This document shows positions 3,101 through 52,131 of a DNA stretch of 64,000 nucleotides, one piece after another. The stretch's first letter is position 1, and each line of letters begins with the position of its first letter. The translations under genes were made by a program, and so were the position numbers. Source of the DNA: Planctomycetota bacterium (GTDB lineage Bacteria; Planctomycetota; MHYJ01; WSZJ01); the NCBI GenBank assembly GCA_038060895.1, contig JBBTCT010000024.1:96001-160000 (forward strand), read 5' to 3'. Under the pieces are notes generated by a model that saw nothing but the letters and a program-made list of their open reading frames with translations, was not told where the DNA came from and did not search any database.

Positions 3101-3223
3101 TCGCCGTCTTCACCGTGAGGGAAAACTCGAGCCCCTCGGCGCGCCCGTCACTCCTTGAAGTCCGCGCTTCCGTTTGTCGTTGACGCTCCCCTGTCACTTC
3201 CCTAGGATTCCGCTCCCGTTGTT

Positions 3224-3297
3224 GGGGGCGTAGCTCAATTGGCTAGAGCATCGGATTGTCGATCCGAAGGTTGCGGGTTCGACCCCCGTCGCCCTCG
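3224..3297 (+). tRNA. tRNA-Asp (GTC), CCA not encoded
   Basis: Cloverleaf: acceptor GGGGGCG/CGCCCTC, D arm GCTC/GAGC, anticodon arm TCGGA-TTGTCGA-TCCGA, T arm GCGGG-TTCGACC-CCCGT, discriminator G. Confidence 0.95.
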
Positions 3298-3303
3298 TCG
3301 TTC

Positions 3304-3340
3304 CAAGCCGCGATAACCTCGCGGCTTGTGTCGTTTCTGG
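3304..3340 (+). terminator. hairpin downstream of tRNA
   Basis: CAAGCCGCGA-TAACC-TCGCGGCTTG followed by TGTCGTTTCT. Confidence 0.6.
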
Positions 3341-3368
3341 TCCATGCCGTCTCCGGGCCAATAGTGCG

Positions 3369-3392
3369 TTGGCTGCCCACTAGGTAGCCCAC
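3369..3392. repeat. putative integrase arm-type sites (left)
   Basis: TTGGCTGCCCACTAGGTAGCCCAC, 22/24 identical to 9633-9656. Confidence 0.7.
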
Positions 3393-3409
3393 CGAGGGAG
3401 AAAACCGCT

Positions 3410-4561
3410 TCATCGCGCCCCCTCGGTGCCGGTCGCAGGCTTCGCGTTGACGGACAGGGAGAAGACCCGCGCCAGCCCGCCGATTGCCGCACGCTGCGAT
3501 TCGGGAGTCAGGTGCGCGTACTTCATGCTTGTCTGCGCGTTGCCGTGGCCAAGGATGCGCCCGGCGTCGAGAAGCGGGATTCCGGCTGCGACCATGAAAC
3601 TCATGGCGCTATGGCGAAGATCGTGCAGGCGCAGCACCCTGCGCTTCTCTTCGGGAATCTGCTTCGCGTGCTTCACGGCGTAGGCGAACGCCCTGCGCAC
3701 CGTGGTTGCAGTCTCTGCACGGCCTGAATGCTGCACGAAGACCGGCGCGGTGGGCAGCGGCAGGGCCTTGGCCTGCTTCTCCGCGAGGGCCACGTACAGG
3801 TCCGGGTGAAGCGGAATCGACCGGGTCCGCTTCGTTTTCGCGTTCGTCGCCTGCACGGTCAGAACGTGGTCCGCTAGGGAGACGTCACCCCACCGCAGGC
3901 GGATCAACTCGCTTCGACGGCAGCCCGTGGTCAGGGCCGCGAGGAAGAATGCCCGGAAGCGGTCGGGCGAGTAGTCGAGCAGCGAAGCGGCTTCGTGCGG
4001 TGCAAGGAACGTCTCCCGTGCGCGCCCGGCTTCGGAGAAGCGCCGGATGTTGTCGAGCGGATTCGCGTCTACGAAGCCCGCTTCCTTTGCCCACGTGAAG
4101 ACCGAAGAAGCGGCAGCCAAGTAGCGGTTTGCCGTGGAGACTGCGACGCCAGCCCGGAGTCTCTCATCAAGCCACACGCGAACCTGGGCTGTCTCGATGC
4201 GTGCAAGGTGGTGGGAAGCCCACGGCGTATTGGTCAGGATGCGAAGCAGGGACTTCAGGTTTACCAGCGTGCTGGCCCGCTTCGAACCGGCGGCGACTTC
4301 GAGGTAGAGCGTGGCGGCCTTGGCGAAGTCCATCTGCGCCCCGTTGTCGTCCTCGAAGATCGTGGCCAGCGCGTCCCGCAGCGTGACGTTGCGCGCGTGC
4401 AGGGCGTGCAGCCCGGACAGCTTTTCCAGCGCGTGCGCCTTGGTCGGCCCGGCGTATCGGCACAAGCGCCGATCCGTTCCTTTCCAGCGGAAGCGAACGA
4501 AGTAGCCCTCGCGTTCCGGGCGACGGCAGACATTTCCGAAATTGCGCTTGGCCACGATCAC
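3410..4561 (-). CDS. int: tyrosine recombinase/integrase
   Basis: TGCRRSEL, TKTKR, HDLRH, LGH and YAH catalytic motifs intact. Confidence 0.95.
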   Translation of the reverse strand: MIVAKRNFGNVCRRPEREGYFVRFRWKGTDRRLCRYAGPTKAHALEKLSGLHALHARNVTLRDALATIFEDDNGAQMDFAKAATLYLEVAAGSKRASTLVNLKSLLRILTNTPWASHHLARIETAQVRVWLDERLRAGVAVSTANRYLAAASSVFTWAKEAGFVDANPLDNIRRFSEAGRARETFLAPHEAASLLDYSPDRFRAFFLAALTTGCRRSELIRLRWGDVSLADHVLTVQATNAKTKRTRSIPLHPDLYVALAEKQAKALPLPTAPVFVQHSGRAETATTVRRAFAYAVKHAKQIPEEKRRVLRLHDLRHSAMSFMVAAGIPLLDAGRILGHGNAQTSMKYAHLTPESQRAAIGGLARVFSLSVNAKPATGTEGAR

Positions 4562-4728
4562 TCTCCCTTTCCGGCGGTCGGCCCGCCCTTGCCCTTCGCC
4601 CTCGCGTCGAGTGCGGCTTCGACGAGCAGGCGAAGCAGGTCAGAAACCTTCCGCTTGTCCCTCATCGCTTCGTCTTCGAGACGGCGGCGCAGGTCAGCGG
4701 ACAGTCGAACGGTCAAGGTGCTGCCCAT
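4558..4728 (-). CDS. ribbon-helix-helix (CopG-like) regulator
   Basis: STLTVRLSADLRRRLEDEAMRDKRKVSDLLRLLVE; GGAGGG RBS; GTGA overlap with int. Confidence 0.8.
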   Translation of the reverse strand: MGSTLTVRLSADLRRRLEDEAMRDKRKVSDLLRLLVEAALDARAKGKGGPTAGKGE

Positions 4729-4750
4729 CGGTCTAGCCCTCCGTGTTGGG

Positions 4751-4794
4751 TGTCTCATGCAAGACATTGTAAGACAAAGTCCCGCATGAGTCAA
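4751..4794 (-). promoter_or_regulatory. sigma70-type promoter of the RHH-int operon with overlapping repeats
   Basis: Minus strand TTGACT-17 bp-TACAAT (4794-4766); TGTCT/AGACA repeats at 4751, 4762 and 4772. Confidence 0.7.
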
Positions 4795-5044
4795 TCCCCT
4801 GTTCGGAATTCGCGCGAATCCCGCGCTGCCGGTCCCGGTCGGCCTCCCGGTCGGCAGCGGTGGGGATCGGCGGTCCTGCGTGAACGTCGCGCAAGCCGGG
4901 GGCGGGAGGGGGCGAAGTCACGAATAGATGCATTTCCCGCGCAGGTCCCATGGCGGTCTGTATACCTATTCGCCACCACCCTGTTCTCCGGGCGTGCCAC
5001 GCTGCTATCGTTCAAGGTCTACCCCTTCCTGAAGGAGTCGAGTC

Positions 5045-5398
5045 ATGGACAAGTGGAAAATCGACGTTCGCCTTGCCGTTATCCCCGCTGTGTTCGGAAT
5101 CGGGTGCCTTGTCGGATCGCTGTGGCCCAGGTCGGAGGCTAGGGCGGAAGGCGGGGCGGACAGCGGCAAGTACCTGCTTTTCAATGGGACGTACCTCGGC
5201 TCCGAGGAGAAGACTGTCGATCCGGAAGCAGCTTCCGTAAAACTGAAGCAGTACACATCGCTGTTTCGCTTGAACACGGAGACTGGTGAGACGATGGAGT
5301 ACTCCGATGGTCTGAGGTTCACGGACGGAAGCTACATTCCCACGCATTGGTCCGGCCCGGTCGAGGATGAATTAAGGCTGGTCAGGCCTCCGAAGTAG
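5045..5398 (+). CDS. hypothetical membrane-anchored/exported protein (island cargo)
   Basis: AAGGAG upstream; N-terminal hydrophobic segment; only plus-strand gene in the island. Confidence 0.65.
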   Translation: MDKWKIDVRLAVIPAVFGIGCLVGSLWPRSEARAEGGADSGKYLLFNGTYLGSEEKTVDPEAASVKLKQYTSLFRLNTETGETMEYSDGLRFTDGSYIPTHWSGPVEDELRLVRPPK

Positions 5399-5406
5399 TA
5401 GGCACG

Positions 5407-5634
5407 TCACACCCGTCCACCCTTCCCTCCGGGATCGGGTTTCCGGTACGCGCGGTATCCCTGCGCAAGTTTCTCGCGTCTCAACTTCTCTAGCTCAACG
5501 AGCGGAATTCGAAGCGTTCGCCCCCACCTGTGGGACGGAAGCTCCCCGGACCGAACCATCCGGTAAACGGTCACGATGGACAGGTCTAGCAATCGCGCTA
5601 CCGTTCGCAGGCTGCCGTCGATTTGACCGGACAT
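5407..5634 (-). CDS. excisionase-like helix-turn-helix (HTH_17) protein
   Basis: VARLLDLSIVTVYRMVRSGELPSHRWGRTLRIP; AAGGAG RBS. Confidence 0.85.
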   Translation of the reverse strand: MSGQIDGSLRTVARLLDLSIVTVYRMVRSGELPSHRWGRTLRIPLVELEKLRREKLAQGYRAYRKPDPGGKGGRV

Positions 5635-5645
5635 GACGAGACTCC

Positions 5646-6086
5646 TTAGGAAGAGAAAGGGACGATTCCAGCGGTGCTTCGTTCCGTTTTGCACGGGTAA
5701 CAGACATCGCAAGTCAGGAAGCCCCCGGCATCCCGGTACAGGCAGCGGCCCATCCCCCGGTCCTCCGCACGCCCGCAGTTCCAGCAGGTCGAGGTACAGG
5801 CGGCCCGCCGATCCAGCTCGCTTGTCGCCTCCGCGATCCACGCCAGCACTTCGGGGGAATCGACTACGGTCTCGGAGGGCGTTGTTGCGGCATTCACGGG
5901 CGGCGTTGCGGGGGCGTTGCGCTGCCCGTTGCGCGAGAGAACGGCAAGCGCCATAGAGCGAATGTCGAGGTCGTTGCGCTCCGGGTGCGTTGGCGGTTGC
6001 GCAAACACCCCTGCGTGTTGCGTGTTGCGTTCACTAGTACGCGCAGCGCGCAACACCTTGTCCGGCTTGGCAGGATCGGGGGTCAT
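5646..6086 (-). CDS. hypothetical protein with C-terminal Cys cluster (possible Zn finger)
   Basis: ATGA overlap with primase stop; CWNC...CDVC. Confidence 0.6.
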   Translation of the reverse strand: MTPDPAKPDKVLRAARTSERNTQHAGVFAQPPTHPERNDLDIRSMALAVLSRNGQRNAPATPPVNAATTPSETVVDSPEVLAWIAEATSELDRRAACTSTCWNCGRAEDRGMGRCLYRDAGGFLTCDVCYPCKTERSTAGIVPFSS

Positions 6087-7837
6087 AGCTTGCCGTCCTT
6101 CTTCGCCTGCCGCAGGAATCGAGAGACGTTGGACGGGTCCCTGCCCACGATCCCGGCAATCTCTCGAATGCCGCAGCCTTCCTTCTTCAGCGCAATTGCT
6201 TCGTCGTGCCACGCCGTCTCGCAGTCCTTGGTGGAGCAGCGCAGGATGCCGTCCGAACCGGTTTCAAGGCGGGCTTCGAAGGGTGCGACCGCGTCGCCCC
6301 GGACCCCGCGCGCCTTCTCGAAGTGAACCTCGAAGCGGCTACCCTCCGAGGGCGAGTAGTCAGAGGGGTGGCGCAGGGAGAGGACCAAGTTCACGACGTC
6401 TTCGCGCTTCGACGTCCCGCGCTGCTTCCCGCCCTTCCCCGCGTGATGGACCATGAACACGGTGATCCCCCTGCGGCGCAGCTTCAGGATGTAGGTCTGC
6501 ATGGCGTCCCACGATTCGCTGTCGTTCTCGGGGCCGCCGTTGGCCAGCGTGGAGAGGTTGTCGATGAAGACCACATCCACATCCTTCAGGTGAGGTTCAA
6601 GCAGCGCCTGTCCCTCGAAGGTCGCAAGGTTCGGGGTGCCGGACTCCTGAAGGTCAGGCGTGACAATCTTGAAGAAGTCCGGGTCCGGCTGCGCCTCCAT
6701 GCCCGCGAGGATGGCGGCAACCCGGTGCTGCACATCTTCCGCAGCCATTTCCCCGTCAACGAAGAGAACCCGGCGGGGCTTCCGGGCGATCCAACGAAGC
6801 ACGCGACCGCCGCAGGCGATGCCGCAGGCGAGTAGCAGCGCAAGCCAGGTCTTCGAGACTCCACGCCAGCCATACGCCAGCACCAAGTCCTTGGCGCGGA
6901 GGATGGCGTCGCCCTTCTCCGTTTCGAGGATGGCTTCGCGCGGCTGAAGTGTCTTCGCCAGAAACTCGCGCGCATTCAGCACGGTCAGGCTGCGCGCAGG
7001 TGAAGAAGTCTCAGTCGAACCTGCGGGATAGCGGCAGATGCTCTTCGCAATATCCGCGAGTTCCTGTTCACCGACCGGCTCTTCGAGACGTTCGACGGTG
7101 TTGACAACTCGCAGCGCAGCGAGGATTTCTGCCTCCGTGAATCCCCGCCTGCGGAAGGACCCTGCGATGCTGGCCAGCCAATGATTCCGCTCCCCGATCT
7201 TGATCTTCTCCGGCAGCACGGGTGCTGGCCCTGTCTTCGCCCCGTGGCCATTTCGACCGAGGACCACATCGAGGACTTTTTCGTGCGCAGCCGCGATCTT
7301 CACTTCTCCCGGCCTGCTACTGGCCTCCCATTCGTAGTTTCGCCCCGAACGATGCGCCGCAGGTGTGACGATGATGTATCCGCCGTCTCCCCGAATGTCG
7401 ATGCCCGGCAGGATGCCCACCTTCGACGGCACGGAGACCCCCTCCGGCATTCCGAGGAGGAAGTGTCGCCCGCCGCCGCCGGTCAGGGCCTGCACGGTGT
7501 CTGGCCACGGGGCCAGATTTTTCAGCGTCTCGAAGCTGTCGTCTCCACCGTGGCCGGGATCGACGTCCACGACGAAGAAGCCGGACGGCGCGCCGGTAGC
7601 GACGGCGGGATTGGCGTCCGGCCAACGATCCCACCACGCCTTGATGATGACGTCGTCCTTCGTGCCGTCGAGGAAGCCGCGAGGTACGCGGGGGTGCTTC
7701 CCCGGTGAATGACAGTCGGCATCGCCGCAGGTGCAGCGCCCTGCTTCGTCTATGGAATGGCAGGGGAAGACGGACCATCCGTAGTGCTTCGCGTACCAAC
7801 GGGCCGCTTCACCGCGTTTGCTCTGCTTCGAGTTCAT
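6083..7837 (-). CDS. bifunctional primase/polymerase (Prim-Pol) + PriCT + RepA/AAA_25 helicase + C-terminal HTH
   Basis: GWSVFPC..CTCG..C.SPGKHP, VVDVD, GIDIRGDGGYII, GERN, Walker A-like GWRGVSKT, FIDNLS, HHAGK..QRGTS. Confidence 0.9.
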   Translation of the reverse strand: MNSKQSKRGEAARWYAKHYGWSVFPCHSIDEAGRCTCGDADCHSPGKHPRVPRGFLDGTKDDVIIKAWWDRWPDANPAVATGAPSGFFVVDVDPGHGGDDSFETLKNLAPWPDTVQALTGGGGRHFLLGMPEGVSVPSKVGILPGIDIRGDGGYIIVTPAAHRSGRNYEWEASSRPGEVKIAAAHEKVLDVVLGRNGHGAKTGPAPVLPEKIKIGERNHWLASIAGSFRRRGFTEAEILAALRVVNTVERLEEPVGEQELADIAKSICRYPAGSTETSSPARSLTVLNAREFLAKTLQPREAILETEKGDAILRAKDLVLAYGWRGVSKTWLALLLACGIACGGRVLRWIARKPRRVLFVDGEMAAEDVQHRVAAILAGMEAQPDPDFFKIVTPDLQESGTPNLATFEGQALLEPHLKDVDVVFIDNLSTLANGGPENDSESWDAMQTYILKLRRRGITVFMVHHAGKGGKQRGTSKREDVVNLVLSLRHPSDYSPSEGSRFEVHFEKARGVRGDAVAPFEARLETGSDGILRCSTKDCETAWHDEAIALKKEGCGIREIAGIVGRDPSNVSRFLRQAKKDGKL

Positions 7838-8046
7838 CTCGGGGAGTCCTGAATCATGGCGAAAACGAGGGCGAGAAGATCGACGGCAGGATGCCTGCCG
7901 AGGATGACGATGGATTCGCGCAGCTGCGGGTGTCGGGCGACAGCGGCATAGACAGCCGCGCGCGGCCCTCCGGCACGGAGAGACCCGAGGGAGAGGAACC
8001 GCATGGCCCGGTCCGAACGCGCGCTTCGAGGAAGCCGGGGTATCAC
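7834..8046 (-). CDS. small hypothetical protein
   Basis: 4-bp stop/start overlaps with both neighbours. Confidence 0.5.
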   Translation of the reverse strand: MIPRLPRSARSDRAMRFLSLGSLRAGGPRAAVYAAVARHPQLRESIVILGRHPAVDLLALVFAMIQDSPR

Positions 8047-8360
8047 TTCCCACCCCCCTTCAGGAACCGGGGCTTTCGGCGGAGTTCTGCGAGTAGCGCG
8101 TCATTCGGGTGCGGCGGAAGCGGGCGCGGATCGGGTCGCGGCGGTGGCGACTGCGCCCGCGAATCGAGGGCAGCCCGCAGGTCGGCGGCCCTGCACGCAA
8201 GCCTGCGCCCCACGCGAATCAGCGGCACGCCAAGTCGGCGCAGCGCCTTGGGAGCGGATTCGGCGTCGATGTCCAGAATCACCCCTACGTCGTCCATCAA
8301 GGGGTATTCGGGCCACGATGCCCTTCTCACTTCGATGCTGTACTTGCCTTTGGTGTCCAT
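8043..8360 (-). CDS. putative winged-HTH/AlpA-like DNA-binding protein
   Basis: DDVGVILDI...LGVPLIRVGRRLACRAADL resembles excisionase/AlpA wing. Confidence 0.55.
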   Translation of the reverse strand: MDTKGKYSIEVRRASWPEYPLMDDVGVILDIDAESAPKALRRLGVPLIRVGRRLACRAADLRAALDSRAQSPPPRPDPRPLPPHPNDALLAELRRKPRFLKGGGK

Positions 8361-8421
8361 ATTCGACCAAGGGGGTACAGCCGCCCGCAGATTCGGAAGA
8401 AAATCGGAATTCCCTAAGCTC

Positions 8422-9516
8422 TTACGCGGTCCACCCTTTCGACTTGGCCAGCAGGAGGACTAGCTCCCCGTCGTCCTCGGCATGGAGAGCCTCATTGAGC
8501 GTGGGCGGTGTGACGTCCCAATCGCGGGCGACGGTCTCCTTCGAGGGGGGAGGGACTTCGGTGATTCGCCTTTCCAGCCAGTCGAGGGCTGCCAGTCTGC
8601 CTTTTGCGAGGTCTTCGGATTTCCGTTCGCGGATGTACTGGAGGATCAAGGCGGCGGTTTCCTTGGCTTCCTTCGCGTCCTTCGTTTCTTTCACGTCCTC
8701 GATAGTGTCTTTGAGTTTGGTGTCTTCGTCCTCGCCGACCTGAACCTCCAAGCTCACCGTGCGCCGGGCGTGGCGACGCCGTTTGATGCATTCTCTTTTC
8801 ACTCGGTCCGCATAGGTCGCCACTTTCATGGCCAGCTTGCCGTCCTTCAGCTTGTAGTCCTTCTCGTAGCTCGCCCTGCCGTACACGTCGCAGATGATGT
8901 CCTCGATAACCGCCTCCGTGCTGGTCGGGTCAATCTCTCTGCGGTCCCCTGTCTTCGAAGGCTTGATCCGCCTGCGGTGTAGTAGCTTCTCGATTTCGCT
9001 GCGGATACCCGGCGGCCACGGAGAAGGGTTATCGGCGTCGCGGAGGAAATGCTCTTCGACAAGGGTCTCGTTCAGGATGCGGAATAGGACCTGGGTCCAG
9101 ACCCTTCGCAGAGTCGCGTGGCGTTCGGTCTTCGGTGTTGACGACATCGCGGGCCGGACCACGCCTTCAAACCAGCGGTTCATGCAGGCGGCGGCAGCCT
9201 CACAATTGATCTCGTCCGCCCGCTGCGCAGAGACGCCCGCCAATCGGATTCCCACCGAGAAGCCCGGCACCACGCCTGATTTGTCGAAGAGGTCTTTGTG
9301 ACGCCCACGGATGTGGGCCAGAATTGACTGGTACATGAGTTCCGCCTTGGCGTCTGACAGGTTGCCCTTTTCGTCGGCGGCTTCTGCGAGGTGCCCCTGC
9401 ACGTTCCAGCAAAGCCACGAGAAGATAACGTCCATCGGTTCCAGCGGCGGCATCGGCAACGGCGGTAGAGAGACTGCCCCCGGCCTGCAAAAGAGCCTGT
9501 CTTCGGTGTCTGGCAT
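8422..9516 (-). CDS. divergent sigma70-like protein
   Basis: VATYADRVKRECIKR (region 2-like), VSLEVQVGEDEDTKLKDTIED (region 3.2-like), SKETVARDWDVTPPTL (HTH); GGAGAGG RBS. Confidence 0.55.
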   Translation of the reverse strand: MPDTEDRLFCRPGAVSLPPLPMPPLEPMDVIFSWLCWNVQGHLAEAADEKGNLSDAKAELMYQSILAHIRGRHKDLFDKSGVVPGFSVGIRLAGVSAQRADEINCEAAAACMNRWFEGVVRPAMSSTPKTERHATLRRVWTQVLFRILNETLVEEHFLRDADNPSPWPPGIRSEIEKLLHRRRIKPSKTGDRREIDPTSTEAVIEDIICDVYGRASYEKDYKLKDGKLAMKVATYADRVKRECIKRRRHARRTVSLEVQVGEDEDTKLKDTIEDVKETKDAKEAKETAALILQYIRERKSEDLAKGRLAALDWLERRITEVPPPSKETVARDWDVTPPTLNEALHAEDDGELVLLLAKSKGWTA

Positions 9517-9632
9517 TTGCGTCCTCTCCCGCGAAGGCGAGCGGAGCCGCAGAGAGGTGCGGCCCACGCCCGCCGGTTAGCGCGAGGACCGTCGCCCTCG
9601 CGCAGGTCATTCTATCCGCGCCGTCGCGGCGC

Positions 9633-9665
9633 TTGGCTGCCCACGTGGTAGCCCACGGGCTGCCC
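9633..9665. repeat. putative integrase arm-type sites (right)
   Basis: TTGGCTGCCCACGTGGTAGCCCACGGGCTGCCC, three GCCC(AC)-containing units. Confidence 0.7.
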
Positions 9666-9794
9666 GATGTCGTCCGACGTCGTCCGGCGTCTTCCGCCTT
9701 CCAGCCGATCCTGCGCTTGCCGTAACCCGTGGTGATGTCGCACGTTTACGCGATCTTCCCTCGAAGTCCGGCGAACGGATTCGCGGAAGCTGAT

Positions 9795-9820
9795 TCGGAT
9801 TGTCGATCCGAAGGTTGCGG
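9795..9820 (+). repeat. att site: displaced tRNA-Asp fragment 1
   Basis: Identical to 3251-3276. Confidence 0.92.
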
Positions 9821-9866
9821 CGTCGTCCCCAGCTGTTTGCCACGGCCTTGCACTCCCGCCGTTCCT

Positions 9867-12290
9867 TCACATCGCGTCCAGAGTCTCCCGCACCCTTCTC
9901 GCCAGTCCGTCCGCGGTAAAAGGTTTCTGCAGGAAGTGCACGTCCTGGTCCAGGACACCGTGGTGGACGATGGCGTTGCTGGTGTAGCCGGAGACGTAGA
10001 GGACGGGCAAGCCGGGACGGATCTCGGACAGGCGCTTGTGGAGGTCGCGGCCGCTCAATCCCGGCATGACGACGTCGGTGACCAGGAGGCGGATGGCATC
10101 GGTGTTCTTCATGAAGACTTCGATGGCTTCCGGGCCGCTTGCCGCCTCCAGGACGACATACCCCTTGCTACGCAGGACCGCGCAAGCCAATTTTCGGACG
10201 GCAGGCTCGTCTTCCACGACCAGGATGCCCTCGGAGCCCCGGGGGACGTCGCGCGGGGCCTCCCGGTCAGGAGTGCTGGCCGCCTCCTGGACGCTCGGAA
10301 AGTAGATCTTGAAGGTCGTGCCTATTCCGGGCTCGCTGTAGACCCAGATGTTGGCGCCGCTTTGTTTCACGATGCCGTGGACGGTTGCCAATCCGAGCCC
10401 TGTGCCTTTTCCGATGACCTTGGTGGTAAAGAAAGGTTCGAAGAGGTGTTCCTGCGTATTGCGGTCCATGCCGATTCCATTGTCGCTGACGGCCAGCATG
10501 ACGTAGGAACCGGGAGCGACGGACGTGTGCGCCCGGGAGTAGGCCTCATCGAGCTGCACGTTGGCGGTTTCGAGGGTCAGTCTGCCGCCGTTGGGCATGG
10601 CGTCACGGGCGTTCACGGCGAGATTCATGATGATCTGCTCAAGCTGCCCGGGGTCGGCCTTGACGAGGTGGAGGCCGGGTGCAAGGGAACTCCTGAGGTC
10701 GACGTCTTCGCCGATGAGGCGTTTCAGGAGTTGCTCCATCTTCTGCACGATGACGTTGATGTCGATCACCTTGAGCACGAGGATCTGGTTACGGCTGAAC
10801 GCCAGGAGCTGGCGGGTCAGGTCGGCCGCCCGGTCTCCCGCGGCCAGGATTTCCTTGAGTGATTCCCGCACGGGATTCCCCTCGCGGAACTGCTCGATCA
10901 GGGTCTCGCTGTAACCATTGATTACGGTGAGAAGGTTGTTGAAGTCGTGGGCGATTCCGCCGGCCAGGCGTCCGATCGATTCGACTTTCTGCGATTGCTC
11001 CAGCTGGCCGCGGAGGCGGTGCCGGACGAGGAATTGGCCGATCTGGCTGCCCAGGTCGGCCATCATCGCCAGCATGTCTTCATCCGGCTTTTCGATCTTC
11101 CGGCTGAAGAACATCATGACGGCGGACGCCTTGTCCTCGCTCGCGACCGGGAAGGCGAACGCCCCGTGGAGATTCAGGCGCGCCGCGAGTTTCGTGCGCG
11201 GGCAGGCCGCTTCCTTGGCGACGTCCTCGAACCACATCGCCTTGCCGCTGGCCGCCACGCTTCCGGCAATGCCGGTCCCGACAGGCCATGGGGCTCCCCG
11301 GGCCGCGTTTTCGAACTCCTCCAGGTCCACGTTTGGGAGATGCCAGCCCCGCACGAACTGCATCATCTGGTCGCGGAAACTCACCGTCCAGACCTCCCCG
11401 TGGGCCCAGTTCATGCTCTCGCACACGGCCTTCAGGATCCTCGGGGCGACCTCTTCGAAGGACTCACCTTCCGAAAGGATGGCCGTGACCGCGCTGCGCG
11501 CGACGAGGCGCACCGCGTAGCGCTCGCGCTCCTCAAGCGCCGCCTCGAGCCCCGCCCGGACCTTCTCCAGGCCCTGCCGGCGCTTTCTTTCCGAAATATC
11601 GACGATGGCGGCCAGAACGAACGTCTCTCCCTCGATCGTGATCGGATTGAGTCCGATTTCCAGCGGAACTTGCGTCCCGTCCTTCCGACGCCCGTACAGG
11701 TCGCGCCCTTCTCCCATGGACCGGGGGCGCGGATTCGCAAGGAACTGGTTGCGGATCTCGACATGGGTCTTCTGGAGGCTGGCCGGCATGAGCATCTCGA
11801 TGAATTGCCCCAGCATTTCCGCGCGGGAATACCCGAAGATCTTCTCCGCCTGCGAATTGACGAAGGTGATCTTCCCGTGCCCGTCCACCAGGACCATCGC
11901 GCTCGGCGCGGCCTCCAGGATCAGCCGCACCCGGTCGTCCGCCTGCTTCCGCTCCGTCAGGTCCCTCGCTATCGCGTATAGACGAGTGGACCCGGAAGCG
12001 GGAGGTGCGACCCTCCAGGAAAGCCATCGCCACGTCCCGTCCTTGCAGCGATAGCGGTTCTCGAACTCCAGAACCGGAGCGCCCTTCGCCTGCTTTGCCG
12101 CAACGTCAATGGTCGCCTGCCGATCGTCGGGGTGGACGAAGTCGAGCCAGGGACGTGCAAGGATCTCTTCAACCGTCCACCCGAGGACCCGCTCCCAGGA
12201 GGGACTCAGTCGCTTGAAATAGCCGTCGAGATCTGCGACCGCCAGCAGATCGATGCTGTTTTCGAAAAGAACTTCAAGCTCGCCGCTCAT
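9867..12290 (-). CDS. hybrid sensor histidine kinase PAS-PAS-GAF-HisKA-HATPase-REC
   Basis: [32 protein letters not shown]; start may lie further upstream (to 12383). Confidence 0.93.
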   Translation of the reverse strand: MSGELEVLFENSIDLLAVADLDGYFKRLSPSWERVLGWTVEEILARPWLDFVHPDDRQATIDVAAKQAKGAPVLEFENRYRCKDGTWRWLSWRVAPPASGSTRLYAIARDLTERKQADDRVRLILEAAPSAMVLVDGHGKITFVNSQAEKIFGYSRAEMLGQFIEMLMPASLQKTHVEIRNQFLANPRPRSMGEGRDLYGRRKDGTQVPLEIGLNPITIEGETFVLAAIVDISERKRRQGLEKVRAGLEAALEERERYAVRLVARSAVTAILSEGESFEEVAPRILKAVCESMNWAHGEVWTVSFRDQMMQFVRGWHLPNVDLEEFENAARGAPWPVGTGIAGSVAASGKAMWFEDVAKEAACPRTKLAARLNLHGAFAFPVASEDKASAVMMFFSRKIEKPDEDMLAMMADLGSQIGQFLVRHRLRGQLEQSQKVESIGRLAGGIAHDFNNLLTVINGYSETLIEQFREGNPVRESLKEILAAGDRAADLTRQLLAFSRNQILVLKVIDINVIVQKMEQLLKRLIGEDVDLRSSLAPGLHLVKADPGQLEQIIMNLAVNARDAMPNGGRLTLETANVQLDEAYSRAHTSVAPGSYVMLAVSDNGIGMDRNTQEHLFEPFFTTKVIGKGTGLGLATVHGIVKQSGANIWVYSEPGIGTTFKIYFPSVQEAASTPDREAPRDVPRGSEGILVVEDEPAVRKLACAVLRSKGYVVLEAASGPEAIEVFMKNTDAIRLLVTDVVMPGLSGRDLHKRLSEIRPGLPVLYVSGYTSNAIVHHGVLDQDVHFLQKPFTADGLARRVRETLDAM

Positions 12291-12612
12291 GACGCCGCGC
12301 TCCAGCAGAAGTGCCATAGCAAGTCTTGCCTGCCAGCCGACTCGGGGAAGCGCAGCCCAGGTCCCTGCAAATGCGCCATCCACGAACTCTCACCACCCGC
12401 GACCCTTATACCAGACCACCCTGACATTCCACTACGCCGGGCGAAGCCCGGGCGCGCACTCTCGCCCCTGCCCGGTCAATCGACCCGCGGGCCAAACGCG
12501 GCTCGACCGAAATCTTGTCTCTACCGCAAAACCTCGCCAACTGTGTGCGCGCACGGGTGGCCACTCCTGCCCACTGGTGACCACTCATGAACTCTCCTGC
12601 CTCATCTCGCTT

Positions 12613-12641
12613 CATCGGATTGTCGATCCGAAGGTTGCGGG
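12613..12641 (+). repeat. att site: displaced tRNA-Asp fragment 2
   Basis: CATCGGATTGTCGATCCGAAGGTTGCGGG identical to 3249-3277. Confidence 0.9.
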
Positions 12642-12828: not shown

Positions 12829-14895
12829 TTGTCTCAACATCTTGACGATCGAAGCGAAATCCAGGCTTTTGTCACCGAGACCCTCCTGGACGACGTCGGC
12901 GCCATCGTCGTTCGCGTGGACTCGACCGGCAGCCGGATCATCTACGGCAGGAGCACGGAGCGGATCACGGGATACAACCGGCGCGAGCTCGCCTCCTCGA
13001 ATTGGCTTGACCTGCTTCTGCCCGAGGCGCGCTACCCTGACCTGCGGGCCGTCATGACGAAGCTGCAGGCCTCGGAAAGCGACAGGCCGCACCTCCAGCC
13101 GATCCTGATGAAATCCGGAGAGGAACGCGCGATTCTCTGGACTAACCACCTGGGCGGCGAAGGAGATCCCTTCCTCGCCCTGACGGTCGGGATCGACGAC
13201 GCCGAGCACCAGGCCGTCGTGAGGACGCTTTCTGAACGAGGCGGCCATGCACTCTTGGCGGCCGAAATCGCCACGGCGCAGGTGAGCTCGGGCACGTCGC
13301 GACAGATGTTGACCCGGGTCACCGATTCGCTGGTGCGCCATCTTGGCGCTGCGTTTGCCCGGATCTGGACGCTCGACTCGACACGGAAGGTCCTGGAGCT
13401 GCAGGCGAGCTCCGGAATGTACACGCACATCGACGGCGGACATGCCCGGGTTCCCGTCGGGCAATTCAAGATCGGCATGGTGGCCGCGGAACGGAAGCCG
13501 CACCTCACCAACAACGTCATGATCGACCCGCGCGTCAGCAACCCCGAGTGGGCCAGGAAAGAGGGAATGGTCGCCTTCGCAGGGCACCCTTTGATCGTCG
13601 GCGACGAGGTCGTTGGAGTCATGGCGCTCTTCGCCCGCAAACCGCTCAGCGACGCCACCCTGCAGGCGCTCGGGTCCGTAGCCGACATGGTCGCCCTGGG
13701 AATTCATCGAAAGTCGCTCGAGGTCCGGGAAAAGACGCTGGAAGAGAAGCTCCGGCAATCCCAGAAGATGGACGCCCTGGGCAGGCTCGCGGGCGGGGTC
13801 GCCCACGACTTCAACAACCTGCTCACCGTGATCATGGGCTATACCGAGATGCTCCACGCTTCACTCCCCTCCGCAGACCCGCGGCAGGCCGAAATGAAGC
13901 AGATCATGCAGGCGTCTGAAAGGGCTTCCTCCCTGACCCGGCAGCTCCTGGCTTTCAGCCGGAAGCGCGTCGTGCAGGCGACCCGGGTGGACCTGAACGA
14001 GGTGCTCCGCAACCTTTCGCAGATGCTTCAGCGGCTTCTCGAAGACAACCTCAAGCTGAATGTCGTCCTGGGACCGGCCCTGGAAAAGGTCCTCGCGGAT
14101 ATCGGCGGACTGGAACAGGTCGTCGTGAATCTCGTCGTGAACGCCCGCGACGCCATGGGAGGCGCAGGCACGGTTCGAATCTCTACTTCAAACGTTGACC
14201 TGGTCCCGCGAGCCGGCAGCGGACTCGAGGACCTCGCGCCAGGCAGATACGTCGAGCTATCGGTCCAGGACGAAGGTTGCGGCATGTCTCCCGAGGTACA
14301 GGCAAGGCTCTTTGAACCCTTCTTCACGACGAAGGAGCGGGGCAAGGGCACCGGACTGGGACTTTCAACGATTCACGGAATCGTCCGGCAGTGCCGGGGC
14401 GGCATCGAGGTGATCAGCGAGGTCGGGAAGGGCTCGACTTTCCGCGTCTATCTGCCCGTCGCCCCGCGGGGCGCCGGGAGCCAGGCCCCTGCGGTCGCGT
14501 CCGGCCGCGCCGGCGGCGCAGCGCACATCCTGCTCGTCGAGGACGAGCCGGCGGTCCTGCAATTCGCGAAGGTCGCCCTTTCCGGCGACGGACACCACGT
14601 ACAAACGGCAACCTCGATCGCAGAAGCCCTCGAGGTCGCCAGGACCTCGAAGGATCCGGTCGATCTTGTCATCACGGACTGCGAACTCGGGGATCTGACG
14701 GGCAGGGAGCTCATTCATACCATTCGGAGGCTGCGTCCCTCCGTGAAGGCAATCCTCATGAGCGGCTCCCCTCGTCGCGGCGAAGAACCCGATCCCCCGG
14801 GAACCCTTGAAGACGAGGTCCTGGAGAAGCCGTTCTCGGGGGCAACTCTGCGGGCGAAGGTCCGCTCGGTGCTGAGTCGGGCCCATCGTCAGTAA
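12829..14895 (+). CDS. hybrid sensor histidine kinase PAS-GAF-HisKA-HATPase-REC
   Basis: [23 protein letters not shown]; TTG start after G-rich RBS. Confidence 0.92.
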
Positions 14896-16568: not shown

Positions 16569-17702
16569 ATGAAGCTCGCCCTTCGACTCGCCCTTGTCAC
16601 CGGCATGCTCGGAGCACTCATCGGGTTCCTGGTCGCGCGCAAACGGTTCGCGACGACCCCTGGCTCGACGGACCCCGCTTCCGCGAACAACGCTCCGGAC
16701 GGCGGGAAGGAATCTCCAGGGGGGGACGAGCTGAAGCGCCGGACGGAAGAACTCGCGCGCTCGCAGCAGGAAGCGGCGGCGCTCCGCAGGCAACTCGAGG
16801 CGGCGCAGAAGAGCGACGGCGCGAAGTCGGCGACGCCGGAGGAAATCGCGGCGCAGGTGAAAGGACTGCGCTCGCGCAAGGCGGCGCTGCTCGAGGCAAG
16901 GGACGGCATGGGGCTGCTGCGGCTGATGCAGGAATTCGCGGCGCTGGGCGAGGCGGGGTACGCGGACGCGATGGAGATTTCAGGACTGCTGCGGGAGGAT
17001 CTGCGGGGGAAGAACAAGAAGTTCGGGATCAGCCGGTCGGACTATTTCCGCGCGGTCGGGAGCTCGATGGTGCCGCTGATGAAATGGGCGCTCGCGAATC
17101 CGGACAAGGCGCCCGCGGCGTTCCGGCTGGACGCGGCCGGATTACTGCGCTGGCAGGACCTGGAAGCCGGGCCGGCCTACCTGGAAGCGCTGAAGATCGA
17201 GACGGACGCGCGCGTCGCGGCGGAGATGGCGCGCGCGCTTCGCGGCATGCAGAAACCGGAGATGGCCGCCGACCTCGTCGCGGCAGCGCGCTTCCAGGCC
17301 GCGAATCCGGACGCGCTTCGGCGCCTGCTCGACGCCATTTCCGGGCTGCCGTCTCCAGAGGCGGACGCGGCGCTCCTGGGGCTCGGCTCCGACCCGAACC
17401 CGATCCTCCGGGAAGAAGCCTCTCTCGCGTACACGGCCCTGAACCCCCCGGCGCCCGGCGTGTTGATCACGACGCTGGTCCCCGGCTCGCAGGCGGACCT
17501 GACGGGACTGAAGCGCGGCGACGTCATCGTGTCCTACGACGGTCACGACCTGGGTTCGTTCAAGCAGCTCCGCAACGAAGTCTCGAAGAAGGACCCGGAC
17601 TCGCTGACCAGCATCGTGGTCAATCGCAACGGCCAGCTCGTCACGCTTCAGCTCAAGGGCGGAAAAATCGGCGTGAACGGCAACTACGTGAAGCCGAAAT
17701 AA
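16569..17702 (+). CDS. membrane-anchored coiled-coil/HEAT-like protein with C-terminal PDZ domain
   Basis: N-terminal TM; VPGSQADLTGLKRGDVIVSYDG. Confidence 0.82.
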   Translation: MKLALRLALVTGMLGALIGFLVARKRFATTPGSTDPASANNAPDGGKESPGGDELKRRTEELARSQQEAAALRRQLEAAQKSDGAKSATPEEIAAQVKGLRSRKAALLEARDGMGLLRLMQEFAALGEAGYADAMEISGLLREDLRGKNKKFGISRSDYFRAVGSSMVPLMKWALANPDKAPAAFRLDAAGLLRWQDLEAGPAYLEALKIETDARVAAEMARALRGMQKPEMAADLVAAARFQAANPDALRRLLDAISGLPSPEADAALLGLGSDPNPILREEASLAYTALNPPAPGVLITTLVPGSQADLTGLKRGDVIVSYDGHDLGSFKQLRNEVSKKDPDSLTSIVVNRNGQLVTLQLKGGKIGVNGNYVKPK

Positions 17703-50238: not shown

Positions 50239-52131
50239 ATGAGCATCGAAATCGGCGGCGTTGAGGTCTACTCGCTTGAAGAAGTCTCCAAGCGCCTCAA
50301 CGTCGAGCCGGACGCGCTGAAGCGGTGCATGCGCCGCGGCGAGCTTGTTGCCCGCAAGATCGGCGACCAGTGGTTCGTGACGTCGCAGAATCTCCTCGCG
50401 TTCCTGCAGACGCCCAGCACTCCAGCGAAGCGAGGGGCGCGGACGCGTGCGACCGACGAACCTCAGGTGCTGCCCGTCACGGCGCCGACGCTGGCTCTCG
50501 AGCCGACGCCCCTGATCGGCCCCGCAGTTCCTGCGGCGGAGGCGGCTCCGACCCCCGCCGTCGCCGAGGTCCCGGTCGAGGAGTCGCTTCCGACGCCCGT
50601 GCTCGAGGAGGAAATCATCTCCGCGGCGCCCCGAGCGGGGCTCAAGGACCGCGAGCCGGAGACGTCCGTGAAGATCGCGAAGCCGGAGACGGTGTTCCCG
50701 CACCAGCTGCCGCCCGGGATTCCCGACGAGCCCGTCCAGGCGGCCCCCGCGCGCCCCGTGTCGGCAGAAAAGGCGACGGAGCCGATCATGACGGCGGTCA
50801 AGGTCCAGCCTCCTTCGCACGCCGAGCCGCTTTTCGTCAGCGCGTCGGAAACGCCGGTGCCAACCCTGAGCGAGCGAAGCGAGCCGAAGTCCCCGGGCGT
50901 CCTGGAATCCGAGAAAGCCACCGACCTCAGCGTCCCGACCATCCCGCTTCCCTCCCACCTCTCTCCCCCGCCCCGCGGGGAATCTCCCACGGCCCCGACC
51001 CTGATCGTGGGCGCGCCCGCCCGGGATGAAGAGAAGCCGCCGCCGCCCAGCTCCGGCGACGCGCTGGCCGCGCTGTTCGACCTCCCGTTCCTGTCGCCCG
51101 ACGAGCCCGCGATGAGCGCCCTTCACGCCCCCACGCCCCCGGCAGGCCCTTCGTTCGGTCCCGAGGACAAGCACGCGCTCGCGATCGAAGCGACGCGGCG
51201 GCGCGCGATGGCCAGGACCGGAACTGCCGAAGACGCGCCCGCACCGGGCGGGAAGCGGACGCTTCTGGATTCCGAAGAGATGCCCTCGGTCTCTGTGGAC
51301 CTTCCGGGGGCCGCGATGCCGCCGGAGACGCGACCGGTCGTGAAGACCGTGGCGCCGCCGCGGCCGACGGCGCCCGGGGCGCGGCTGTCGGACATCCCGA
51401 ACATGTTCGGGCCGGATTCGCCGACGGTGCTTCTGACGCCGGAGCAGGTGGTGGCCGACGCGGAGCGGACGAAGCGGGTGCTCCATGAAGTCATGGAGCA
51501 GGGGCGAATCGCGCAGCGGGCGCGGGACGAAGTCGTGGCGACGGTGCGGAAGCTTCCGCTGGAAGAGCAGTCGTTCGCGCTGGCGGGGCCGATCGGCGAG
51601 CAGCTGGTGAAGCTGGACAAGCTGATTGAAGACGGCATGCGGGCGCAGAAGGAGCTGGGGCTGACGACGCCTCCTTCCGCGCCGAACGTCGTGACAGCGG
51701 TGCATCGCGCGCCGGCGGCGATTCCGAAGATGGAAGAATCGAAGTGGCTGCCGGTCGGGCAGCAGGCGGCGGCGGACCCGATGCCGCTGATTGCGCCGCA
51801 GTCGGACGCGGTGATTCCGGTGGCGCCGCCCTCAGTTTCGAAGCGGCCGGCGTCGCGCGTCGGGCCGGTGGGAGGCGAGACGTGGCAGGAAGTCGGGCTG
51901 CCTTCGGGAAGCGCGGCGGCGGGCGGACGGCAGGATACGGGAGGGATCGTGCGGCTGACGCTCTCGCTGTCGGACGAAGAGAAGCGGGTCCTGTCGGATC
52001 ACCGGATTGCCGAAGAAACGGCCGTGCAGGAGATCATGCGGCGGTACCAGCCGACGGATGAGCGGGGGTGGGTGGATGCGAAGGGGCGGTATTTCCAGCC
52101 GCTGAAGGGAAAGGGCGGTGTGCGGGCTTAG
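50239..52131 (+). CDS. HTH_17-type DNA-binding domain fused to a long Pro-rich region
   Basis: YSLEEVSKRLNV...RRGELVARKIGDQWFVT; GGAG RBS. Confidence 0.78.
   Translation: MSIEIGGVEVYSLEEVSKRLNVEPDALKRCMRRGELVARKIGDQWFVTSQNLLAFLQTPSTPAKRGARTRATDEPQVLPVTAPTLALEPTPLIGPAVPAAEAAPTPAVAEVPVEESLPTPVLEEEIISAAPRAGLKDREPETSVKIAKPETVFPHQLPPGIPDEPVQAAPARPVSAEKATEPIMTAVKVQPPSHAEPLFVSASETPVPTLSERSEPKSPGVLESEKATDLSVPTIPLPSHLSPPPRGESPTAPTLIVGAPARDEEKPPPPSSGDALAALFDLPFLSPDEPAMSALHAPTPPAGPSFGPEDKHALAIEATRRRAMARTGTAEDAPAPGGKRTLLDSEEMPSVSVDLPGAAMPPETRPVVKTVAPPRPTAPGARLSDIPNMFGPDSPTVLLTPEQVVADAERTKRVLHEVMEQGRIAQRARDEVVATVRKLPLEEQSFALAGPIGEQLVKLDKLIEDGMRAQKELGLTTPPSAPNVVTAVHRAPAAIPKMEESKWLPVGQQAAADPMPLIAPQSDAVIPVAPPSVSKRPASRVGPVGGETWQEVGLPSGSAAAGGRQDTGGIVRLTLSLSDEEKRVLSDHRIAEETAVQEIMRRYQPTDERGWVDAKGRYFQPLKGKGGVRA

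Follow-up and report, generated by a model that had tools for sequence, protein, structure and literature searches.

A tRNA gene of a Planctomycetota bacterium, uncultured and from groundwater, harbours a mobile DNA island of 6.5 kb (Table 1). The window, that is the whole 64-kb stretch of DNA analysed here, had been assigned to a probable planctomycete host in an earlier note on the sequence; this is supported by one window gene that is 83-90% identical to Planctomycetota MAGs. The 3' half of the tRNA-Asp gene is duplicated, starting at 3251. The att core, TCGGATTGTCGATCCGAAGGTTGCGG, is identical (26/26) in the attL and attR copies, which are spaced 6544 bp, and the attR site shares 33 of 36 nt with the tRNA. 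In the 5.42-Mb assembly the core occurs three times in forward and never in reverse orientation, and a control with the reversed pattern gave no match. A terminator-like hairpin after the tRNA is kept downstream of tRNA-Asp copies in congeners (blastn: G001, G003, G004), from which we infer that the P' arm of the element regenerates the 3' end of tRNA-Asp together with its terminator. The arm-type repeats at the two ends match at 22 of 24 positions (92% identity). All four exact matches of the motif GGYWGCCCAC in the window fall into these two sites (right-hand copies at 9635 and 9647); with up to one mismatch, 28 matches were observed versus 16.8 ± 4.3 expected. Location, att repeats and arm-type repeats at both ends had been read from the letters before and are borne out by ARAGORN/Rfam and the repeat search.

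Table 1 Features of the tRNA-Asp locus (positions in the window).
Feature	Position	Strand	Evidence or remark
tRNA-Asp (GTC)	3223..3299	+	ARAGORN; Rfam RF00005, 68.2 bits; integration target
attL core, 26 nt	3251..3276	+	exact direct repeat, three copies
Terminator-like hairpin	3304..3328	+	after tRNA
Arm-type repeat pair, P' arm	3369..3392	+	GGCTGCCCAC..GGTAGCCCAC
Tyrosine integrase, 383 aa	3410..4561	-	PF00589 5.3e-23; phrog_1 4.2e-63; reads towards tRNA
Ribbon-helix-helix (RHH) gene, 56 aa from MGSTL	4558..4728	-	RHH_5 5.1e-4, below cut-off; codon statistics
117-aa protein, hydrophobic N-terminus	5045..5398	+	codon statistics; sole plus-strand gene of the element
HTH_17/excisionase-family (Xis/AlpA-like) gene, 75 aa	5407..5634	-	PF12728 1.1e-9; TIGR01764; phrog_66
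Cys-rich ORF, 146 aa, CxxC pairs	5646..6086	-	codon statistics; no family found
Replicase, 584 aa	6083..7837	-	Prim-Pol 2.3e-38; PriCT_1 3.7e-11; AAA_25 2.2e-25; C-terminal HTH
Spacer, 205 bp	7838..8042		upstream of replicase gene; non-coding by codon statistics
105-aa gene	8043..8360	-	no family match
364-aa orphan protein	8422..9516	-	381 aa if started at upstream GTG 9567
P-arm repeats	9633..9696	+	arm-type pair 9633-9656; 10-nt tandem repeat, 3.3 copies, 9664-9696
attR core of the 6.5-kb element	9795..9820	+	also left boundary of older remnant
Older att-bounded remnant, 2.8 kb	9821..12614		without integrase; hybrid histidine kinase gene 9867-12383 (-)
Third att core, distal	12615..12640	+	exact copy; expected following tRNA remainder absent

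The integrase is intact, as had been stated; its translation shows the R..K..HxxR..H..Y residues in addition to the family matches in Table 1. Its start overlaps the stop of the RHH gene as GTGA. The longest ORF of the latter extends to 4794, and a promoter-like site ahead of it (4794-4766) did not score above chance. The RHH gene is a candidate for a recombination directionality or regulatory partner of int. The HTH_17 gene reaches 38.4 bits with the NCBIfam 'excisionase family' model TIGR01764 (cut-off 28.8), in agreement with the xis-like gene proposed earlier.

The predicted Prim-Pol/AAA helicase gene is indeed present and encodes a PrimPol-PriCT_1-AAA_25-HTH module, the AAA_25 part of which is a RepA/DnaB-like helicase. 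The invariant primase residues D91, D93, H125 and D147 (DxD, H and D motifs) are retained, as is Walker B. Walker A reads GVSKT, not GVGKT, and all four closest homologues have Gly at the position of the Ser; this exchange may impair the helicase. The replicase type was matched in 57 of 50,697 phage records versus 6 of 72,556 plasmid records, and the fused architecture is present in a complete temperate phage of 41 kb. In the replicase tree the window protein shares a group with a Nitrospirota protein from an island and with proteins of unknown context, outside the planctomycete phage clade. Codon statistics do not support a small ORF that had been placed ahead of the primase gene. The primase start is at 7837, and the 205-bp spacer before it is a candidate promoter or origin region.

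With four of the nine element genes lacking a family, transfer functions could be hidden among them. The Cys-rich ORF is linked to the replicase gene by an overlap of its ATG with the replicase stop (ATGA). The translational coupling claimed for most of the minus-strand run is only partial: besides this overlap there is a gap of 11 bp to the HTH_17 gene, and there are gaps of 61 and 205 bp in other places. The 105-aa gene has the position of an HTH_17 gene in a sister-type element of genome G002, and aligns weakly to that gene (31% over 84 aa, E 1.4). The 117-aa gene, which was missing from the earlier note, sits in the stretch of lowest GC (0.58); its product has one homologue (41% identity) and is regarded as cargo with no function assigned. 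A minus-strand ORF at the same place (5012-5347) was rejected as coding on the basis of codon statistics. The gene described as sigma-like (8422-9567) encodes a protein predicted to be all-helical (structure prediction pLDDT 43), for which the homologue search found no relative. The description is reduced to a 21-residue motif resembling sigma-70 region 3.2 (9/21 identities to the motif of host RpoD, E 0.078). Membership in the sigma-70 family was rejected: no family-level score was reached and neither region 2 nor region 4 is present, Sigma70_r3 gives 24.0 bits versus the Pfam cut-off of 25.3, and the NCBIfam sigma models give 15-23 bits versus cut-offs of 354 or more. As claimed, genes for packaging or transfer are absent: capsid, terminase, portal, relaxase and T4SS had no family match among the element proteins (Pfam, PHROGs, NCBIfam, PADLOC). 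Likewise, the element has no recognisable hijack gene such as TerS or a capsid-remodelling gene (Pfam, PHROGs), and no partition or plasmid-maintenance gene (Pfam).

Next to the element lies an older unit, and the third att copy makes the locus an array. This tandem arrangement was overlooked in the earlier note. About 130 bp beside the distal att copy (12472-12614) are conserved in congeners. The histidine kinase is accessory, with an orthologue of 75-80% identity in one of seven congeners and at most 46% identity in the rest. The locus is best explained as an additive island in which the 6.5-kb element is the tRNA-proximal unit and the older 2.8-kb remnant was pushed distally.

The left flank was found in all seven congeners and the DNA of the element in none of 40 relatives, which points to an insertion polymorphism; the comparison had been suggested in search of an empty tRNA-Asp site, but the congener sites carry other islands (3.6, 5.1 and 11.4 kb in the three congeners read end to end). 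Contigs from three studies have no difference in the element and the attR junction. Related islands exist elsewhere. The sister-type element of G002 is inserted in tRNA-Phe with att repeats of 44 bp and arm repeats of its own, and has three HTH_17 genes, one PrimPol-AAA_25 gene and an RHH-int pair. An integrase, the same replicase type and a tRNA were also seen together in a Nitrospirota locus (L140) and in three of the six planctomycete loci examined; three of the six are phage-like and have the fused architecture. Among seven sampled loci of the closest homologues of the helicase half, six are islands that carry an integrase gene and have a tRNA or tmRNA gene in the locus, and one of the seven has a small terminase. 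The layout of integrase, this replicase type and tRNA recurs in Planctomycetota, Nitrospirota and Proteobacteria. Homologues restricted to large prophages or ICEs had been named as an argument against a satellite; the replicase type occurs in small int-tRNA islands as well as in phages.

The island is of the int/Xis-AlpA/primase class. Its likeness to PICI 'type C', PICMI and tycheposons does not amount to formal membership in any of these groups. The PICMI-like or PICI-like layout that had been claimed holds for integrase, Xis/AlpA and primase; the formal gene sets of PICMI and of PICI types A and B are not complete. According to the PICMI description, both have about 6 kb, an HTH_17 of the AlpA/Xis type, a primase and one or two orphan genes, and both are without capsid-remodelling genes (PMC10803314). 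The RHH gene stands where PICMI have 'iolg', and the small gene and int overlap by 4 nt in both, as ATGA in PICMI and as GTGA here (PMC10803314). The PICMI model, as given there, combines an integrase (PF00589/PF00239/PF07508), AlpA (PF05930/PF12728) and a primase (PF13148/PF19263) with an adjoining fis (PF02954) (PMC10803314). Integrase (PF00589) and AlpA (PF12728) were found; the primase is of the Prim-Pol, PriCT_1 and AAA_25 type instead of DUF3987 (PF13148) or DUF5906 (PF19263), and the site is tRNA-Asp, whereas PICMI of Vibrionaceae integrate downstream of fis in another host phylum (PMC10803314). Moreover, induction, packaging and transduction of PICMI are described as experimentally shown (PMC10803314), whereas the present element is known from sequence. 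PICI of type A or B are defined in SatelliteFinder by at least four of five core components, namely int, regulator, pri-rep, capsid morphogenesis and TerS (PMC10085698). The integrase, AlpA-like regulator and primase-replicase shared with PICI in one small island amount to three of the five, as judged by Pfam and PHROGs and not by the SatelliteFinder profiles, which corresponds to the 'type C' set aside by the authors as ambiguous (PMC10085698). In their account, a set of int, AlpA and primase with nothing else could be a PICI that is defective, a mobile element of another kind, or genes brought together by chance (PMC10085698).

Tycheposons of Prochlorococcus, as described, share the tRNA-targeting tyrosine recombinase, the excisionase and the primase/helicase, the newest element beside the tRNA with older remnants split by partial tRNA copies, and a site that varies among close relatives (bioRxiv 10.1101/2020.12.28.424599). 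All parts of this layout, including partial tRNA repeats and a place next to the tRNA in a variable island, are found here. However, tycheposon integrases form a clade of their own, host and habitat differ, and the likeness is one of layout; for tycheposons, measurements have shown an enrichment in vesicles and capsids (bioRxiv 10.1101/2020.12.28.424599). VEIMEs are also small, with integrase, primase/helicase and AlpA or excisionase and without a major capsid gene, and are proposed in their description to be packaged as concatemers; they are defined by occurrence in virus particles (PMC9618062), whereas cellular assemblies are the only place where the present element was found. Satellite P4 has an integrase, an AlpA-type regulator and a fused primase-helicase in common with the element (PMC10085698). 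A P4-like satellite was rejected, Psu, Delta, Sid and epsilon being unmatched among the element proteins (PHROGs, Pfam). The alpha protein of P4 is another primase/helicase type than Prim-Pol plus AAA_25. A prophage was rejected as well, as capsid, portal, terminase and tail genes are absent among the element proteins (Pfam, PHROGs). The same applies, as far as protein families go, to an ICE or IME: relaxase, coupling protein and T4SS families are absent from the element, and VirB4 (PF03135) and Relaxase (PF03432) gave no match in its own genome, which is 86.5% complete. Cis-mobilizable elements and tandem accretion at att sites have been described for Streptococcus ICEs. The att-bounded unit 9821-12640, without integrase and in tandem with an integrase-bearing one, is reminiscent of them, but there is no conjugation module anywhere at this locus.

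The island is very probably a real, recently acquired mobile element. On balance, we read it from its sequence as a 6.5-kb integrative, self-replicating mini-element that would have been inserted into the 3' half of tRNA-Asp by a tyrosine integrase. It is probably still excisable and replicative; this earlier proposal fits the att cores, arm sites, int, RHH gene, excisionase-family gene and PrimPol-helicase motifs. That it is a domesticated or decaying remnant that lost excision and replication is quite unlikely. Such a loss would agree with the exchange in Walker A and with the clearly decayed neighbouring unit. In addition, the depth of the element piece in run X1 contigs (12.5) is not above that of its flanks (13.3 and 13.8), and no excision, circle or empty-site junction was seen among the joints listed for four runs, a search of assembled contigs, which drop rare forms and thus leave them invisible. 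However, att cores and arm repeats are preserved, the recognisable genes are all open and of full length with their catalytic motifs, the compact GTGA and ATGA overlaps are retained, and unrelated genomes share this minimal layout, an outcome that random decay would not produce. Compatible with any of these readings, the mobile unit could span all of 3277-12640 (9.4 kb), with the kinase as cargo and recombination between first and third core. The third core matches the others exactly, the kinase is accessory among congeners, and integrative elements are known to accrete in tandem and to be mobilised in cis; nevertheless, we regard this as very unlikely, since the arm-type sites of the element flank the second core and not the third, and the arm beside the third core has different repeats and is conserved by descent in congeners without the element.

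How the mini-element moves between cells is a matter of weaker preferences. By analogy with the systems above, it may, tentatively, be a satellite that depends on a helper phage. Somewhat more doubtful is an integrative and replicative element that is no satellite, similar to a tycheposon or an integrated plasmid, and either spread by vesicles or natural transformation or kept mainly through vertical descent with occasional excision. The locus is similar to tycheposon islands, which grow by addition at a tRNA and have the active unit beside it (bioRxiv 10.1101/2020.12.28.424599), and three islands with int, HTH_17 and helicase lie within one genome showing no prophage marker. Packaging gene, helper and virome copy were all unfound: Terminase_6C, HK97 capsid and portal families had no match in the 86.5%-complete genome, and an exact-peptide scan of IMG/VR gave no relative of the integrase. 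Against this, the replicase type is far more common in phage than in plasmid records, one relative island has TerS, and the element is without partition or plasmid-maintenance genes. Mobilisation by a conjugative system acting in trans is the least probable route and hardly to be expected. Elements that have int and replication genes and lack transfer genes can be mobilised, and in the G002 element the RHH gene ahead of int weakly resembles the relaxosome protein NikA (1.6e-5, below cut-off). Yet the element is without relaxase and coupling protein, VirB4 and Relaxase are unmatched in its genome, and no conjugation family was found in any related island annotated.

As judged from the gene content of the mini-element, Int would bind the arm sites (GGYWGCCCAC) as well as the 26-bp cores and, together with the RHH and HTH_17 proteins, would release a circle by recombination between attL and attR. 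The PrimPol-PriCT_1-AAA_25-HTH protein would prime and unwind this circle for copying. Since no recognisable cell-exit function is encoded, transfer would have to use outside machinery, most likely the capsids of a helper phage, as in PICMI and VEIME satellites. Literature searches found no satellite published for Planctomycetota. If all of the following held together, which we consider rather unlikely, Planctomycetota would have a phage-satellite lineage of their own, to which the element would belong as a functional member: several such islands per genome would share their replicase type with planctomycete phages, a helper phage that is virulent and leaves no prophage would package the element as concatemers, and the 364-aa protein, with its motif resembling sigma region 3.2, would time the switch by acting on RNA polymerase.

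The target of integration is a tRNA-Asp(GTC) gene, and a 26-nt stretch of its 3′ half recurs as exact repeats at 9795-9820 and 12615-12640. This att core is found in only three copies in the whole assembly (5.42 Mb, 47 contigs, 86.5% complete), and a reversed-pattern control gave none. Of the tRNA sequence, 33 of 36 nt are retained in the second copy and 27 nt in the third. Further inside, a 24-nt repeat, 92% identical between its two copies, is located 93 bp from attL and 139 bp from attR; its unit, GGYWGCCCAC, is matched exactly four times in the 64-kb window, each time within these two arm-type sites. The idea that the element lies downstream of the tRNA, with the inner repeats as its actual att sites, was rejected, because a sister-type element in the congener G002 has the same two-level structure of a tRNA-derived core and separate inner repeats.

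Features of the element and of two further islands in the same genome (positions are those of the window unless a contig is named)
Feature	Position	Strand	Remarks
tRNA-Asp(GTC)	3223-3299		target of integration
Integrase, 383 aa	3410-4561	minus	PF00589 5.3e-23, phrog_1 4.2e-63; reads towards the tRNA
Ribbon-helix-helix gene	4558-4728	minus	sub-threshold RHH_5; end overlaps integrase start as GTGA
117-aa gene	5045-5398	plus	hydrophobic N-terminus; lowest-GC stretch
HTH_17 gene, 75 aa		minus	11-bp gap after Cys-rich ORF; above the NCBIfam 'excisionase family' cut-off
Cys-rich ORF, 146 aa		minus	ATG overlaps replicase stop as ATGA
Replicase, 584 aa	6083-7837	minus	Prim-Pol 2.3e-38, PriCT_1 3.7e-11, AAA_25 2.2e-25, C-terminal HTH
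Spacer, 205 bp			between 105-aa gene and replicase
105-aa gene	8043-8360	minus
364-aa orphan gene	8422-9516	minus	first in transcription order
10-nt tandem repeat	9664-9696		after the right arm-type repeat
Island L409	G000:C18:61128-69968		order: tRNA-Thr, int, HicA, two HTH_17, DUF3987 helicase; integrase 38% identical
Island L410	G000:C31:153221-162956		order: int, DUF6941, HicB, three HTH_17, AAA_25 helicase; integrase 34% identical

ORFs were filtered by codon-position G+C, given the genome G+C of about 65%, and three minus-strand ORFs of the earlier note (5012-5347, 4791-5015 and 9607-9870) were rejected as genes by these codon statistics. The proteins of the element gave no match to capsid, terminase, portal, relaxase, T4SS or defence-system families in Pfam, PHROGs, NCBIfam and PADLOC, the last of which returned an HTH match only. 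In the replicase, D91, D93, H125, D147 and Walker B, which are invariant among relatives, are retained, and Walker A (6862-6879) reads RGVSKT, compared to RG[VI]GKT in all four closest homologues; this serine may weaken the ATPase. Look-ups in Atlas and PDB yielded nothing usable for the Cys-rich ORF and the replicase, and the plus-strand 117-aa protein has one homologue (41% identity). A 15-nt word at the replicase stop (6087-6101), AGCTTGCCGTCCTTC, is also present twice in tandem (100% and 87%) in the 364-aa gene at 8834-8863, 2.7 kb from the replicase stop. It encodes KDGKL in the reading frames of both, and the copies could be iteron-like or a matter of chance. Far from the island, a 630-aa protein (50239-52131, plus strand) has an N-terminal HTH_17 and no further family.

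For the 364-aa protein, a search of 5.8 billion clustered proteins gave no homologue; a comparison with 1.84 billion representatives returned one repetitive 3117-aa protein only, and the Atlas matches are unnamed clusters. A single-sequence AlphaFold model is all-helical and, with a pLDDT of 43, unreliable. The earlier note had described this gene as sigma-like. A 21-residue stretch resembling region 3.2 is indeed present, with 9/21 identities to the host RpoD (E = 0.078) and a best PDB E-value of 0.19, but it is the sole source of the sigma signal, its score of 24.0 bits lies under the Pfam cut-off of 25.3, and homologues are lacking. The protein is treated as an orphan with a sigma-like motif and not as a sigma factor.

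The element is part of a larger array. Its second and third att copies enclose a hybrid kinase gene (PAS-PAS-GAF-HisKA-HATPase-REC, 9867-12383) and no integrase, and the segment 9821-12640 probably goes back to an earlier integration and has since decayed. The kinase is accessory, since a close orthologue (75-80%) is present in one of the seven congeners and the rest have at most 46% identity. About 130 bp to the left of the third att copy (12472-12641) are conserved beside the distal tRNA-Asp repeat in five congeners (G001, G002, G003, G004 and G006), and the repeats in this arm differ from those of the 6.5-kb element. The distal repeat comprises the full 50-nt 3′ half of the tRNA in G001, G003, G004 and G006, is followed by a terminator hairpin in G001, G003 and G004, and stops after 27-29 nt in G002 and in the genome under study (G000). 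The last 24 nt of tRNA-Asp, absent after the third att copy, are found beside a KilA-N gene on another contig (G000:C31:4248-4271, locus L411); it seems that a rearrangement split the distal att remnant in G000, and the truncation is common to G002. Apparently, the array reflects successive integrations at one tRNA, with the newest unit next to the tRNA, where it restores the 3′ end and the terminator, and with older units displaced and decaying.

DNA of the element (3400-9790) was found in none of 40 relatives, the seven congeners included, and all seven congeners have the left flank. A truly empty tRNA-Asp site was not found among the congeners, in which contigs break at the tRNA except in G002, G006 and G003; these three carry islands of 11.4, 5.1 and 3.6 kb, respectively, that differ greatly in content (toxin-antitoxin pairs, RhuM, rve transposases, a HINT protein, a 117-aa integrase fragment). 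In these sequences, tRNA-Asp is an additive hotspot with a different content in every congener examined. In G005, a gene like that of the PDZ protein at 16569-17702 of the window is located directly upstream of tRNA-Asp (G005:C161, 4004-5027, L413) and not, as in the window, 13 kb downstream of it, which reflects either a rearrangement or an error in the assembly of that MAG.

The closest full-length relatives of the replicase are only 36-44% identical. The nearest sister-type element, that of G002 (G002:C137:7126-16096, L115), occupies tRNA-Phe, is 8.9 kb long, is bounded by 44-bp exact att repeats with 22-nt arm repeats at both ends, and encodes three HTH_17 proteins, Prim-Pol/AAA_25 and an RHH protein abutting an integrase that is 33% identical to that of the element; two reading frames share the split Prim-Pol/AAA_25 gene, and a truncated serine recombinase lies within the element. 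Five fused-replicase loci from other phyla were annotated: that of Nitrospirota has replicase, two small genes, integrase and tRNA-Arg in the order seen in the window, one adjoins tRNA-Phe and two are solitary genes. The 43 ORFs of these five loci gave no match to capsid, terminase, portal or conjugation families. On its own, the helicase half shares 40-49% identity with proteins from many Proteobacteria and Chlamydiae. Of seven annotated helicase-half loci, six are islands with int and with a tRNA or tmRNA gene in the locus, and the seventh has a serine recombinase; a small terminase occurs in one of the seven, capsid genes in none. A scan of metagenomes recovered mainly the helicase half, on short contigs and with 37-51% identity, and nothing close to the element as a whole. 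For the integrase, an exact-peptide scan gave no relatives in genome contigs or IMG/VR, and among 300 Planctomycetota genomes the best match has 41% identity.

Prim-Pol matches were found in 48 of 301 Planctomycetota genomes. Three of six planctomycete loci with the fused architecture are 5-7-kb islands with integrase and tRNA, and three are phage-like, one with a GpA-type terminase and a lambda-family portal and two with AAA_24/DUF669/DEAD-helicase replication modules. A maximum-likelihood tree was built from 21 fused replicases, with all rows kept; in it the window protein groups with that of the Nitrospirota island in a 100/100 clade whose other seven members are of unknown context. This clade is separate from that of the planctomycete phages and from those of the other planctomycete islands, two long branches making deep placement unsure. 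Two further islands of this genome carry related integrases, HTH_17 genes and a helicase of the DUF3987 or AAA_25 type. The element is of a small island type found repeatedly at tRNA genes in Planctomycetota, at least three times in this genome.

The metagenome runs that contain the stretch are groundwater and aquifer samples. The earlier suggestion of a planctomycete host is supported by a window gene whose counterparts in Planctomycetota, Planctomycetia and Brocadiia MAGs share 90, 84 and 83% identity with it, respectively. Junctions were searched in Logan assembled contigs, in which rare forms are lost. Across three studies (four runs), contigs of the element and its attR junction showed no differences, and the element is therefore stable in that population. 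Neither the circle joint (9820 to 3277) nor the empty-site joint (3250 to 9821) was among the joints listed for these contigs, which neither supports nor refutes excision; terminal overlap indicative of a circular contig was seen in 0 of 175 loci, most of which are sub-ranges, so that this carries little weight. One depth-2 contig of run X4, regarded as unreliable, joins 6107 to 9865 with two extra letters and could be a deletion variant without replicase and orphan genes or an assembly artefact. In all large runs summed contig depth rises at least 10-fold over 10840-11306 and 13642-14108, the HisKA/HATPase parts of two kinases; it is uninformative there because many paralogues or other organisms share these stretches.

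Target tRNA, att cores, arm sites, intact genes for recombination and replication and insertion polymorphism can all be read from the DNA. Based on the families involved, Int with its RHH and HTH_17 partners would excise a circle, which the Prim-Pol/helicase would replicate. Whether such a circle travels with a helper phage, as the earlier note proposed, is a different matter, and we hold the satellite lifestyle only tentatively. Replicase matches are found in 57 of 50,697 phage records versus 6 of 72,556 plasmid records, and a complete 41-kb temperate phage encodes a fused replicase (27% identity). Markers of a prophage, helper or conjugation gave no match for five families in the own genome, which is 86.5% complete and in which a virulent helper would leave no trace. 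Spread by a non-phage route, or mainly vertical persistence, is slightly more doubtful. That the element is inactive we consider unlikely: the Walker A serine would be in line with it, the otherwise retained catalytic residues and the intact integrase would speak for function. Mobilisation by conjugation is highly improbable, with neither relaxase nor T4SS in the element.

Among known elements, the likeness to PICMI comprises int, a small gene overlapping by 4 nt, alpA, orphan genes, a primase, a size of about 6 kb and the lack of capsid genes; however, the PICMI model calls for a DUF3987/DUF5906 primase and a fis site, and the element has neither. VEIMEs have a parallel layout. PICIs need capsid-morphogenesis or TerS components, neither of which is present; with three of five PICI components the element would be 'type C', which the SatelliteFinder authors set aside as ambiguous. 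The array structure matches the additive tRNA islands of tycheposons.

Small int/AlpA/primase islands at tRNA genes are already known; this new one comes from an under-studied phylum and has a replicase architecture unlike that of PICMI and several orphan genes. A full-text literature search found no phage satellites in Planctomycetota, and supplements of satellite surveys may list such hosts. Few mobile elements have been described in Planctomycetota, and this locus adds a cleanly bounded one, comprising att cores, arm sites and modules for recombination and replication. The att/Int/Xis set could serve as a tool for site-specific integration in bacteria whose genetic manipulation is difficult. 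If the element does not depend on a helper, it is an ordinary small genomic island; if it does, the satellite lifestyle would reach a new phylum and groundwater communities.
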